Shown one piece after another: positions 19,269 through 25,226 of a stretch of 64,000 nucleotides of DNA. The DNA comes from Escherichia coli O127:H6 str. E2348/69 (GTDB taxonomy: Bacteria > Pseudomonadota > Gammaproteobacteria > Enterobacterales > Enterobacteriaceae). The translations under genes were made by a program, and so were the position numbers. The notes below the pieces were generated by a model. The model saw only the letters and a list, made by a program, of their open reading frames with translations, was not told where the DNA came from and searched no databases. Positions within the stretch are counted from its first letter, which is position 1. Every line of letters begins with the position of its first letter. The DNA is taken from the NCBI RefSeq assembly GCF_000026545.1, contig NC_011601.1, one strand, 5' to 3'.

Positions 19269-19311
19269 CGGACGCGAATTGCAACTCGAAATACTACGAG
19301 AATAAATAATA

Positions 19312-19983
19312 ATGAAAACCACCCTCCCCCTCATCGCCAGCATCTCTGTTGATGAACAGAAAAACAGATTGATCGAATGCTTCCGGGAATATTGGGGCGT
19401 ACAGCAGATTAACGACCGCCATGACAACATTGCACTCCGCGTAGGCAAAGGTAAACATGGTTGCCACTTTATCTGGTCAGAAAAAAATATCGATATTCAT
19501 TATTACTGTGACCGTGAAATGTCGCCTCAGGAATGGTCAAAGATCGTGACGGTGATGACCGTCGCGCTGGATACCCCCATACCGCCCTATTATCTTGATA
19601 GAGATGAGAAAAGACATCGCACCACTTTGCGGAAAACACATCGCCGGGGAGACAATAGTATTGGATGTTTTATCTACCCCTACAAAGAAGAGGCAAATGG
19701 TGGGTGGGATTATAATGTTGAAAGTCTTTTCATTTACGAATGCGATTTCACGATACTGGCGGCAGGCATTAAGGCGTGCTATCCGCTCAATAATGGTGAA
19801 CGCGCGTTTGATTATACGAGCTGGAATGAATTTACCGTTGCTGAATGTGAGAGAATAATTTCGTCCTGGCTGGATGCAGGGCAAGAAAATGAGAGCTACA
19901 CGCCATTCATTCAATACGTGGTTGAATGGATGCAGCCCCTTATGCGGGAATATGACACGATTATGATTGAAGGTAATCTCTAA
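19312..19983 (+). CDS. Hypothetical protein (AT-rich orphan ORF, island gene 1)
   Basis: 223-aa ORF in a visibly AT-rich stretch; no domain recognised; stop overlaps stop of the convergent SNF2 gene. Confidence 0.55.
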   Translation: MKTTLPLIASISVDEQKNRLIECFREYWGVQQINDRHDNIALRVGKGKHGCHFIWSEKNIDIHYYCDREMSPQEWSKIVTVMTVALDTPIPPYYLDRDEKRHRTTLRKTHRRGDNSIGCFIYPYKEEANGGWDYNVESLFIYECDFTILAAGIKACYPLNNGERAFDYTSWNEFTVAECERIISSWLDAGQENESYTPFIQYVVEWMQPLMREYDTIMIEGNL

Positions 19984-22900
19984 TCCTGGCCTGCCCTGAA
20001 CAGCTCTTCCAGTTCATCATCCGTCATCTTACCCAACCACTGCTCGCCGCTGCCGACAGTCATCTCCGCCAGCGCTTTTTTATTTCTGATCATGTCGTTG
20101 ATCCGCTCTTCAAACGTCTCACGGGTCAACAGGCGATGCACCTGCACATTACGCTGCTGGCCGATACGATAGGCGCGGTCGGTGGCCTGCGCTTCCACCG
20201 CCGGGTTCCACCATAAATCGTAATGAATCACCTGGCTGGCGGCGGTCAGATTCAGCCCCGTACCACCAGCTTTCAGCGACAGAATAAAGTGGCGTACAGA
20301 ACGGTCATTTTGAAAACGTTCGACCTGCTCATCGCGCTTTTTGCGGCTTAAGCCGCCGTGTAAAAACAGGGGTTGTTCGCCATAACGCGCGGTAAGCCAG
20401 CTTTGCAGTAGTTCGCCCATCTCTTTGAACTGGGTAAAAATCAGCACCTTTTCTGTTGTCTCTTCAATGCTGTCCAGAAGATCCAATAACAGTTGCGCCT
20501 TGCCAGAAAGCGCCGCATCCATCTGCTTATTTTTCAGATAGTGCGCCGGATGGTTACAGACCTGCTTCAACGCCATAATCATTTGCAGCACCAGCCCCTG
20601 ACGCTGGAAGGCATCAGACTCCCCACGGATCACCTGCATCCCTTCGCGCACGACGGACGCATAAATTGCCGCCTGTTTAGTTGCCAGTTCACAGAAACGG
20701 TCGGTTTCAATTTTTTCGGGCAGATCGCTGATGATGGTTTTGTCCGATTTCAGCCGACGCAGCAAAAATGGCGCGGTTATGCGGCGAAAACGTTCAGCAA
20801 CCTGTTGATTACGATCCATCTGGATCGGTTTCTCAATCTCCGAAATAAACGTTTTTAGCGGCCCCAGATAGCCACGCAGAGCAAAGTCCATAATGCTCCA
20901 GTATTCTGCAAGACGGTTTTCCACCGGCGTACCGCTTAGAGCAATAAACGCATCGGCAGGAATTGATTTTGCAGCCTTCGTCTGTGCCGAGGCCGGATTT
21001 TTTAGATTTTGTGCCTCATCCGCCGCCACCAGACGCCAGTGCTGTTTCTTTAACGTTGCGGCATCGCTACGCACCACGCCGTAAGTGGTGAGCAGGATAT
21101 CCGGCATCTCATCGGACAACGCGCGCTTGCCGCCGTGGTATATCGCCGTCGTTAACGTTGGGGCGAAACGAGCGATTTCTCGTTGCCAGTTAGTCAACAA
21201 GGTGGTCGGCATGATAATCAGCACCTTACGCTCCGCCAGCGCGCCTGTCTCTTTTTGATGCTGAATGACAGCGATAAGCTGAAGCGTTTTCCCGAGGCCC
21301 ATATCATCGGCCAGGATGCCGCCGATCCCCAGCGCCAGGTTATGCGTCAGCCAGGCAAAACCCGTTTGCTGATAGGGCCGCAGCGTGGCGTTAAGAGAAA
21401 CGGGCTGAGAGGGCATACCAACCGAGGTCAATTGCCGAAGTTGCTCACGCGCCGCGCTATCCAGCATAATCGGCGTGCCTGCGTACTCACCGGACAACGC
21501 CGTCTGCGTTAGCGCCATGCCTTTAATGTCCGGTGGATTTAACAGCTTATTGCGCAGTCGGGCGATTTCGTCAGGGTCAAGATAGATAAACTGTTCTTTG
21601 AAACGTACAATCCCTTCGGCACTGTCAATGAGCGTTTCAAATTCAGTAACCGTCAGTTGCCTGTCTCCCAACGCAATGCGCCAGTCAAAATCGAACAGAT
21701 TTCCCAGTTGAAACCCGCTGCTGCCTCCCGCGCCGGAGGATGATTTCACCTGCATGCTGAGTCTGGGGCGTAATATTTTATCCAGCGCTTTCGGCAGCAA
21801 CGCCTGAATGCCCAGCATGCGAATAACGGGCAACGCGGTAAAGAGAAAATCCGGCAACGTTTGTGCGGTGAGGCGCAGCGCCTGCCGCCCTCCGGCACGC
21901 AGATACTCACACAACGGAGGGTAGAATTCCGCCAACATCGCCAGCGTTTGCAGGACGGCCATCCGTGTATTTTCGTAGCATTTTTGCCACAGAATATCCG
22001 CCAGCATCACTGGCGCGGGCTGGTCCGTTATTTTCACCGCCAGATGCAGCGCAAAGTCTTCCCCGGCTTCATCCAGCATAATCACTGGCGGCTGCTCGCG
22101 ATGCACCAGCGTCAGGCGCGACAGCCATTGTGCGATACTGGCGGCGCTGGCGCTTTCCCGTCGCGAGTCAAATGTCACCCGCCCGGTGAGGAAAAAGAGC
22201 TTGTCATATGGCGTATCGCCTTTCTTCAGGGGAACCGACTGTACCAACCGATCAAGCATCAGCGAGCACAAGGTTATAGCCTGCCGCTTGCCGGTAAGCG
22301 CCCAATCGTTAAAAGAGATCAACCCGTCCGGCAATTGTCGGGCGACCTGTTCGAGCAAATTATCGACCGTTACATCCAGCGTAGCTGGAAGCCAGCGAAC
22401 CAGCGTCTCACTTTCACAGGAAAAAACCTGTGGCATAACTGCGCCTTTCGCCAGCAGATGAACAGCGAATTGCCAGGCCAGGTGTAAACCTGCGACGGAA
22501 GGTTGCAACATCTGCAAGCGTCGCGGGGTCAAATTTTTCAGCTCCCCCAGCAGCGTGGAGAGATCTTTAAGATGCGTAATACCCTGCACGCAACAGCGGT
22601 AATCCCCGTCAATTCTGAGCATCGGGGATTCGGTTGCTCCCAGCGCCCACTGCATCTGGCTCTCTGATTCAGGAACAATTTTTTGCAATTGCTCCCCATA
22701 ACGAACAAGGCGTGCCAGTTGTTGGCTGTAAACCTGATGAAAATCACCAAAGGGATAAAAAACCGGATTATCGGGCAACAGTCGCAACAGATCGTGGTGT
22801 AAAGCAGGGATCAGGGTAAAATCCAGCCCCTGATTCGCTTTTTCCTCATGAACAAAAGGTTGATTTGCGAATAGCGCTGACAGCGAGGGGGGAGTGATAA

Positions 22901-24790: not shown

Positions 24791-24830
24791 AAATTGTTTT
24801 GCGCCAGTTTGCTCATGGGAGCATTTAAGA

Positions 24831-25148
24831 ATGTCAGACACATCACATAAAGAAAGTAAATGGCACCCTCATCTGGATATGAGTTTTCTGGGATGCGTGC
24901 TGGCATTTGCTATGGAAGTTTATTTTGAAGAACACATTTTTATTCCCCACGGTGGAGGAGCAAGTTTTGGATTGATAGCACTCATCGTTATTAATTTTAT
25001 GACTATCCCGATAGTGATCGTGGTAACAACACTATTTTGTTATTTATTTGAAATTTCGCGAAAGCGTGTAAATCGTATTTTGATATTCCTGTTGGCATGT
25101 ATTTTGACTATTATCGGTTTGTTTATCGCATATCCCGTCGGGCAATAA
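24831..25148 (+). CDS. Small membrane protein (AT-rich, island gene 4)
   Basis: 105-aa ORF with 3 predicted hydrophobic helices; AT-rich. Confidence 0.5.
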   Translation: MSDTSHKESKWHPHLDMSFLGCVLAFAMEVYFEEHIFIPHGGGASFGLIALIVINFMTIPIVIVVTTLFCYLFEISRKRVNRILIFLLACILTIIGLFIAYPVGQ

Positions 25149-25226
25149 AAAAACAAAGCAACTCAATGTAATTGATAACTTCACTATTGGCCGGATTAAA
25201 CACCATCCCCATCCGGCCCCTCAACC

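Follow-up and report, generated by a model that had tools for sequence, protein, structure and literature searches.

Chance juxtaposition of a SWIM-SNF2 ATPase gene and a DUF1963 gene in a rare accessory island at the hemF-eutR junction of Escherichia coli E2348/69

Here we describe a 5.96 kb interval between hemF and eutR in Escherichia coli O127:H6 strain E2348/69, which lies in a window of 64,000 nucleotides and carries four genes, encoding an orphan protein (orf223), a SNF2-family ATPase, a Cys-rich DUF1963 protein and a YpfK-family membrane protein. An earlier note, made from the letters of this DNA, had described the two large open reading frames, and they are real: both stand in the ORF list at the coordinates it gave, and they are annotated in RefSeq (NZ_CP059840.2). 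The flanks are the core genes hemF (18369..19268, + strand) and eutR (25227..26279, - strand). Alignment to a strain with an empty site places the island limits at 19268-25224, with homology stopping at 19267 and restarting at 25225, and in sampled E. coli without the island the ends of hemF and eutR are about 5 bp apart, in keeping with the adjacency of the two genes in ordinary E. coli, which the earlier note had given for K-12. The complete island was found in 8 of 5,426 complete E. coli genomes, each SNF2-bearing genome holding all four genes together, and a sensitive blastn search of other E. coli for diverged copies of the SNF2 gene returned none outside the same 8 genomes. The island, as had been supposed, is rare accessory DNA. 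The junction itself is a variable spot, and different cargo has been placed there in other genomes, such as a Tli3-family T6SS immunity protein accompanied by SEL1 and TPR proteins, a TacA/GNAT toxin-antitoxin pair and, in Citrobacter, an ankyrin-repeat protein. With this, the junction is on record as a small site of variable content in Escherichia and related bacteria.

The SNF2 gene (19980..23429, - strand) encodes a protein of 1149 aa with the domain order SWIM-DUF8276-DUF3670-SNF2-Helicase_C. Its motor (20160..21374, - strand) comprises the Pfam domains SNF2-rel_dom (aa 686-962, E=5e-64) and Helicase_C (aa 977-1090, E=8e-23) and has the intact motifs of a SNF2 family ATPase: GLGKT at 711-715, DEAQ at 804-807 and motif VI, QATDRAYRIGQ, at 1081-1091. 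DUF3670 (aa 516-633; 21531..21884, - strand) is matched at E=1.2e-25. The Pfam match to SWIM is weak (E=0.0075); the CxCxnCxH signature of a SWIM zinc finger is present at aa 123-134 (23028..23063, - strand), and its residues C123, C125, C132 and H134 are invariant in 11 homologues. The proposed fusion of a SWIM finger to a complete SNF2 core is thereby borne out. The closest solved structure is the Sulfolobus Rad54-like 1z63 (E=9e-121), and all matches in this sequence search were confined to the motor; domain searches detected no nuclease or other effector domain anywhere in the protein. A phage origin of the gene was considered and rejected: PHROG 29996 matches the protein end to end, yet its N-terminal half has matches in only 2 of 50,697 phage records, one being Wolbachia phage WO and the other a fecal contig.

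In full-length domain order the protein resembles the bacterial SWIM-associated SNF2 helicases (DUF8276 + DUF3670 + SNF2-rel_dom + Helicase_C), to which we take M. tuberculosis HelZ/Rv2101, with its SWIM neighbour, to belong. In E2348/69 the SWIM part is fused to the helicase, whereas on Bradyrhizobium plasmids it is encoded by a separate gene adjoining the helicase. The NCBIfam model of the 'SCO1167/SCO6262 family helicase' (NF058637) aligns over nearly its full length, residues 305-1144 against positions 74-929 of 932 (E=1e-203), but at 679 bits against a cut-off of 1200, which makes the protein a relative of that family and not an equivalog. Its SNF2 motor, its lack of a nuclease and its stand-alone gene are features it has in common with RapA of E. 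coli and YwqA of B. subtilis; RapA, however, is without a SWIM, DUF8276 or DUF3670 region, and the RapA model (NF003426) aligns with the Helicase_C region alone, at 61 bits against a cut-off of 576. Among defence proteins, PADLOC returned ZorD (E=2.5e-124), DpdE (8e-110) and DrmD (8.5e-38). The likeness to all three is in the motor only, at residues 661-1144, and the N-terminal 660 residues are unrelated to them; for ZorD the alignment covers profile positions 422-886 of 908, and solved ZorD (8qy7) matches at 2.7e-66. The NCBIfam scores lie far under the cut-offs: 296 bits against 1500 for ZorD of Zorya type I (NF041790), 91 and 65 against 950 and 610 for DrmD of DISARM, and 56 against 500 for DpdE (NF041062) of Dpd, the 7-deazaguanine DNA modification system. 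None of zorABC, drmABC/MI, a methylase or dpdA-K is annotated at the locus, where the neighbours are hemF, orf223, the DUF1963 gene, YpfK and eutR. Outside the generic SNF2 motor, none of the defence-system models gave a match.

On the other strand, divergent from the SNF2 gene, lies the DUF1963 gene. The divergent arrangement stands, but the length of 425 aa and the spacer of 83 bp first given to it do not: translation probably begins at the second ATG (23528), which is the start in RefSeq and in 30 homologues and is preceded at 9 nt by a GGAG. The protein then has 420 aa (23528..24790, + strand) and the spacer 98 bp (23430..23527). An N-terminal zinc ribbon (C7, C12, C28, C31; 23546..23620, + strand), invariant in 31 sequences from several phyla, is followed by a HEAT-like region and a TYPP/YwqG-fold domain (about aa 221-420; 24188..24787, + strand) with two CxxC pairs per repeat and a GGxPxWxQ motif. 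The Pfam DUF1963 match, which bears out the DUF1963-like C-terminus previously suggested, is partial (residues 364-411 only, model positions 1-51 of 216, E=3.7e-5); the YwqG/TYPP fold is accordingly placed in approximately the second half of the protein (around residues 221-420), a putative boundary that we read ourselves from the strand-rich region of the model. The protein has the GGxP, the conserved Q, the two strand-swapped all-beta repeats and the 1PV5 fold of TYPP/DUF1963 proteins, and shares a fold with the TYPP superfamily (Tsr4, YwqG, PDCD2L, PDCD2; DUF1963/PDCD2_C; 1PV5). It differs from that superfamily in its extra N-terminal zinc ribbon and HEAT-like helical domain (about 160 residues) and is only 11% identical to YwqG; a sequence search against solved structures gave nothing significant. 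These zinc-ribbon/HEAT/TYPP proteins form a large catalogued family that extends over several phyla, with a clear architecture and no known function.

The two small genes flank this pair. Convergent with the SNF2 gene, and overlapping its stop by 4 bp, is orf223 (19312..19983, + strand; ORF list and RefSeq CDS), which encodes 223 aa and has only 8 clusters in 5.8 billion proteins, the named ones from E. coli and E. albertii. It is a fast-diverging, Escherichia-only orphan. Downstream of the DUF1963 gene, the YpfK-family small membrane protein (105 aa; 24831..25148, + strand) has two strongly hydrophobic stretches, at about aa 44-72 and 80-104; the Pfam family PF26378 is matched by its orthologues, whereas the E2348/69 copy gives nothing significant in Pfam. 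No Pfam match was found for orf223, and none of orf223, the YpfK protein and the DUF1963 protein had a match in PADLOC, NCBIfam or PHROG.

The earlier note had seen in the SNF2 and DUF1963 genes a conserved and possibly defensive module, and with or without the two small genes the pair could be a new anti-phage or anti-plasmid system. The two are divergent neighbours with a short common spacer, on accessory DNA; Zorya, DISARM and Dpd contain SNF2 motors, and the E2348/69 motor matches their models; and all four genes are present in 8 of 8 SNF2-bearing E. coli. Distribution nevertheless largely refutes this reading. Neighbours of the DUF1963 family were surveyed at 78 loci from 78 species (1.46 Mb), and none had a SNF2 gene within 10 kb; conversely, an intact DUF1963 gene was absent from all 12 further contexts of the SNF2 family, and a profile scan of 10 SNF2-family loci for DUF1963 found only a 57-aa remnant. 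This remnant lies in another enterobacterium (locus L016), where a SNF2 protein 81% identical to that of E2348/69 occupies the same hemF-eutR site in a different gene order: hemF, DUF1963 remnant, YpfK, orf223, SNF2, eutR. The hemF-eutR locus thus offers both DUF1963 without SNF2 and SNF2 without an intact DUF1963 gene, and the two were not found as conserved neighbours across unrelated genomes. Of the findings that the earlier note had said would speak against a module, unlinked distributions elsewhere were indeed observed; ubiquity as core genes was not. In B. subtilis, where the earlier note placed ywqA, ywqB and ywqG in one neighbourhood, tkmA-ptkA-ptpZ-ugd (ywqC-F) presumably separate ywqA/B from ywqG.

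The spacer argues in the same direction. Loci that have DUF1963 alone show no homology before 23509-23573; most of the spacer thus arrived with the SNF2 block and is not an ancestral bidirectional promoter. A single promoter-like site lies in it (23466-23495, + strand), and a shared bidirectional promoter was rejected, since promoter-like and terminator-like sites are no more frequent in the island than in shuffled sequence. A literature search on DUF3670, SWIM with SNF2 in defence, the hemF/eutR island and ypfK gave nothing relevant, with no report of defence among the papers searched, and the TYPP paper makes no mention of SNF2 or SWIM (PMC4275035). Because each gene is found almost everywhere without the other, the adjacency is a chance juxtaposition and not a new defence system, and we regard a conserved module as highly improbable. 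A lineage-specific interaction between the two proteins may still exist in E. coli, given that the four genes are always together in the 8 SNF2-bearing genomes. A plausible-looking but false candidate defence system, based on adjacency in a single strain without co-occurrence elsewhere, is thereby removed.

We consider it probable instead that the hemF/eutR interval of E2348/69 consists of two gene pairs of separate origin that form no functional unit, with the SNF2 protein a solo remodeller. In 20 other E. coli, which have no SNF2 gene there, the DUF1963 gene follows hemF directly and in the same orientation, usually with YpfK behind it, and the hemF-DUF1963 arrangement without SNF2 recurs in E. 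albertii and three other genera (Citrobacter, Klebsiella and Superficieibacter); Klebsiella, E. albertii and E. coli all have YpfK after DUF1963. The identity of the DUF1963 protein drops in step with that of hemF (79%, 71% and 54% versus 95%, 90% and 87%), which fits vertical descent at hemF, as judged from synteny in a handful of genera. The DUF1963 family is absent from 72,556 plasmids, in contrast to the SNF2 N-terminus. DUF1963 and YpfK would accordingly have long been settled 3' of hemF in Enterobacteriaceae and been lost by nearly all E. coli. The second pair, orf223 and the SWIM-SNF2 gene, makes up a block of some 4.2 kb (19268 to about 23508) that separates hemF from the DUF1963 gene; at locus L004, orf223 occurs without SNF2.

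The cargo of this spot also suggests another interpretation, in which the junction is a store of orphan immunity genes, with DUF1963, YpfK and orf223 encoding immunity proteins and SNF2 a passenger. The Tli3-family protein, the ankyrin-repeat protein and the TacA/GNAT pair found at the same place would suit such a store, as would an arms-race pattern in orf223, which is 54-60% identical between strains while hemF is 97.7% identical in the L004 comparison; moreover, B. subtilis ywqG presumably adjoins the ywqH-L LXG toxin cluster. The conservation of the DUF1963 family, 39-55% identity across phyla with 43 invariant columns, is however unusual for an immunity protein. Across its 78 loci no neighbour was conserved and none was conspicuously toxin-like: the largest cluster of neighbouring ORFs covered 15 loci, and the one inspected consisted of generic AraC-type regulators, so that a conserved partner was rejected. 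RefSeq annotates no toxin gene within the E2348/69 island. The TYPP paper uses 'immunity' in passing only and draws no immunity link for the bacterial versions (PMC4275035). We judge the immunity store improbable. TYPP proteins have been proposed as protein-interaction or chaperone modules (PMC4275035), and eukaryotic members chaperone ribosomal protein uS5, to which PDCD2 is dedicated (PMC7736825). By analogy with these, the likeliest role of the DUF1963 protein is that of a protein-binding adaptor or chaperone that stands alone.

The SNF2 family, for its part, is mostly encoded by a gene on its own. The same Pfam set is found in hundreds of homologues of 1,150-1,250 aa. Many Beta- and Gammaproteobacteria have full-length homologues at 50-55% identity, several species of Xenorhabdus, Acidithiobacillus, Cupriavidus and Nitrosomonas have full-length homologues, and the non-motor N-terminal half alone gathers 1,237 clusters at E<=1e-30. 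The SWIM-SNF2 translocases, with over 1,200 sequence clusters, are another large catalogued family with a clear architecture and no known function. Solo contexts include the viaA-ravA interval of one Xenorhabdus genome and of a related enterobacterial MAG, others in Cupriavidus, Acidithiobacillus and Methylohalobius, and plasmids of Aeromonas, Fulvitalea and Persicobacter.

Such contexts raise the question of whether the SWIM-SNF2 protein, as a system of one gene, could act against mobile DNA or, when carried on plasmids, serve as a counter-defence or entry factor, with DUF1963 an unrelated neighbour. The gene is rare and accessory in E. coli and sits in a variable spot, and its SWIM N-terminus matches 125 plasmid records, 56 of them conjugative. 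A homologue on a Cupriavidus plasmid has Wadjet (TIGR02677-80) and an N6 methylase as neighbours; another is found among AbiEii, Hok, reverse-transcriptase and AIPR genes on a conjugative plasmid of Aeromonas; and HigBA and RES-Xre adjoin further homologues. Such toxin-antitoxin, Abi and Wadjet neighbours could point to defence and not to housekeeping. They were seen in only about 5 of 13 contexts, however, a raw count with no background control, and the other neighbourhoods, that in Methylohalobius among them, are housekeeping. The viaA-ravA site and the distribution over several genera look more like stable chromosomal residence, the protein has no detected effector domain, and no PADLOC model matches it over its full length. 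We therefore hold a single-gene role of this kind to be unlikely, a weak possibility kept in view by the occasional proximity to toxin-antitoxin or Wadjet genes. In its more specific form, an unrecognised solo SWIM-DUF8276-DUF3670-SNF2 defence or plasmid-borne counter-defence against incoming mobile DNA, recognition of a foreign DNA-protein complex would fall to the SWIM half and its stripping to the motor, and DUF1963 would have no part. This form, which would explain a patchy, plasmid-prone distribution and the occasional Wadjet, Abi or toxin-antitoxin neighbours, seems to us doubtful.

As a solo remodeller, the reading we prefer, the SNF2 protein would act alone as an ATP-driven double-strand DNA translocase, its motor displacing or remodelling a DNA-bound protein and its SWIM-containing N-terminal half selecting the target. 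Its action may resemble that of RapA or B. subtilis YwqA on RNA polymerase, although we infer this mechanism by family analogy only; YwqA is a reported RNA-polymerase interactor that has been treated as RapA-like and called poorly characterised (PMC7385302, PMC10804225). E2348/69 and K-12 differ at hemF/eutR and provide a natural strain pair for the study of either gene.

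Between hemF and eutR lies a patchwork of genes whose distributions are independent of one another and whose families are known but uncharacterised. In the RefSeq gene calls, taken from NZ_CP059840.2 (E2348/69; 100% identity over 18300-26300), hemF is followed by a 223-aa hypothetical protein (orf223), a 1149-aa "SNF2-related protein" on the strand opposite to its neighbours (19980-23429), a 420-aa "DUF1963 domain-containing protein", a 105-aa hypothetical protein (YpfK, 24831-25148) and eutR. The ORF list supported the positions in the earlier note with only small corrections: the longest DUF1963 ORF starts at 23513, but the ATG at 23528, which yields 420 aa, is favoured by the start of the homologues, by the RefSeq call and by a GGAG located 9 nt before it. 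Measured against an empty-site strain, in which the ends of hemF and eutR lie 5 bp apart, the island extends over 19268-25224. The whole island was found in 8 of 5,426 complete E. coli genomes, three of them assemblies of the E2348/69 lineage, and a sensitive search with the 5' half of the SNF2 gene recovered the same eight E. coli genomes and none further. With this rarity and the empty site, the segment is accessory DNA, as first supposed.

The further proposal, that the SNF2 and DUF1963 genes form a conserved module or defence system, was not borne out, and five lines of evidence concur that the pairing is not conserved. In 20 additional E. coli genomes the DUF1963 gene occupies the hemF-eutR locus without SNF2, in most cases together with YpfK. 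Three of these loci were inspected: one reads hemF, DUF1963 pseudogene, YpfK, eutR; another additionally holds a TacA/GNAT toxin-antitoxin pair (L003 8068-8860); and the third carries an orf223 homologue in place of YpfK, followed by Tli3-family, SEL1 and TPR genes. The order hemF then DUF1963, again with SNF2 absent, recurs in Klebsiella, Citrobacter, E. albertii and Superficieibacter, and DUF1963 identity drops in parallel with that of hemF across the compared loci. The DUF1963-YpfK pair has thus long resided beside hemF and has since disappeared from most E. coli.

The nearest SNF2 gene outside E. coli (81% identity) lies in another enterobacterium (L016) at the same locus, in the order hemF, a 57-aa DUF1963 remnant, YpfK, orf223, SNF2, eutR; there the DUF1963 gene is destroyed and SNF2 is not divergent from it. 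A scan of genomes from 100,044 species gave 78 loci encoding the 420-aa DUF1963 family, mostly in Paenibacillus, with others in Clostridium, Planctomycetota, Verrucomicrobia, Chitinimonas, Bacteroidota and elsewhere. Searching these loci (1.46 Mb) by tblastn with the entire SNF2 protein returned zero matches, and no other neighbour was common to more than 15 of the 78. Conversely, an intact DUF1963 gene was absent from 12 further SNF2-family contexts, both chromosomal (the enterobacterial locus just described, the viaA/ravA interval of Xenorhabdus and an enterobacterial MAG, a Cupriavidus chromosome, Acidithiobacillus and Methylohalobius) and plasmid-borne (Aeromonas, Cupriavidus taiwanensis, Bradyrhizobium, Fulvitalea and Persicobacter); in a profile scan of 10 of the 12, the sole DUF1963 match was the 57-aa remnant. 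The DUF1963 family has no member on 72,556 plasmids, while the SNF2 N-terminus matches 125 plasmid records, 38 of them from Bradyrhizobium. Finally, homology between E2348/69 and the DUF1963-only loci starts only at 23509-23573, so most of the "shared" spacer came with the SNF2 block.

The SNF2 family is large, the non-motor N-terminal half alone retrieving 1,237 clusters at E<=1e-30, and full-length homologues with 50-55% identity and an identical Pfam set occur in many Beta- and Gammaproteobacteria. The best curated model, "SCO1167/SCO6262 family helicase", aligns nearly end to end, yet scores 679 bits against a cut-off of 1200; the ZorD, DpdE, DrmD and RapA models match the motor only, with scores far under their cut-offs. 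No nuclease or other effector domain was detected in the protein. The only experimental literature found on related bacterial proteins concerns B. subtilis YwqA, a reported RNA-polymerase interactor treated as RapA-like and called poorly characterised (PMC7385302, PMC10804225).

We propose that the SNF2 protein would act as a stand-alone ATP-driven double-strand DNA translocase displacing DNA-bound protein, with its SWIM-containing N-terminal half probably selecting the target. Because some homologues adjoin Wadjet, AbiE/AIPR or toxin-antitoxin genes, a solo role against mobile DNA is conceivable, but it is improbable given the housekeeping surroundings in Methylohalobius and the stable position that the gene holds in one Xenorhabdus genome and in a related enterobacterial MAG. 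In these last two (L017 5414-12051 and L102 6392-13120) the gene separates viaA from ravA and is read from the other strand; in E. coli, viaA and ravA belong to a single operon. A conjugative plasmid of Cupriavidus taiwanensis (L099 1-14057) carries a homologue, interrupted by an IS21 element, immediately after the four-gene cluster TIGR02677-TIGR02680, which we take to be the Wadjet JetABCD families, with an N6 DNA methylase in the vicinity. Bradyrhizobium conjugative plasmids (L100 1503-7831) carry a split form of the E2348/69 fusion, in which the SWIM part is a separate 316-aa gene directly after a 901-aa DEAD/DEAH (SNF2-type) helicase and a RecD-like helicase.

An alignment of 31 DUF1963 family members from several phyla revealed three invariant or almost invariant four-cysteine zinc sites and a GGxPxWxQ motif; the protein (23528-24790) is therefore a zinc ribbon followed by HEAT-like and TYPP domains, in agreement with Burroughs and Aravind's definition of the TYPP superfamily (PMC4275035). 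Analogy with TYPP proteins, among them PDCD2/Tsr4, a chaperone of ribosomal protein uS5 (PMC7736825), makes it a putative protein-binding adaptor or chaperone, stabilised by zinc. In the family alignment, E. coli shares 50-53% with Planctomycetota or Chitinimonas, about equal to the 54% shared with Klebsiella, and such even similarity points to horizontal transfer or to very tight constraint. A fusion to DUF2625 occurs in one Paenibacillus member, and the E. coli EC42405 gene (L002 8985-10247) has an internal stop, a sign of decay.

YpfK is a small, hydrophobic protein. The orphan orf223 (19312-19983; also L004 10307-10972 and L016 11574-12245) is represented by no more than 8 clusters among 5.8 billion proteins; those with a name come from E. 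coli and E. albertii. Its identity between strains is 54-60%, with hemF at 97.7% in the sole comparison giving both values (L004); this reflects either very rapid divergence or allelic lineages of long standing, as expected of an arms-race gene.

The hemF-eutR junction behaves as a small variable spot. As alternative cargo, SEL1 and TPR genes accompany a T6SS immunity gene of the Tli3 family in E. coli (L004 11007-12600), and Citrobacter has an ankyrin-repeat gene (L012 6784-7833). In one E. albertii contig (L014 6534-7586) the eutR region was called as separate ORFs of 94 aa and 254 aa, versus a single one of 350 aa, another sign of decay. Beyond eutR, a Mu-like transposable prophage of ~36 kb (about 27945-63660), with a Mu transposase (29313-31355), AAA ATPase, Mor, gpT-type head protein and tail genes, splits eutC into a 3' part (27507-27944) and a 5' part (from about 63661), and the ethanolamine operon of E2348/69 is thus interrupted.
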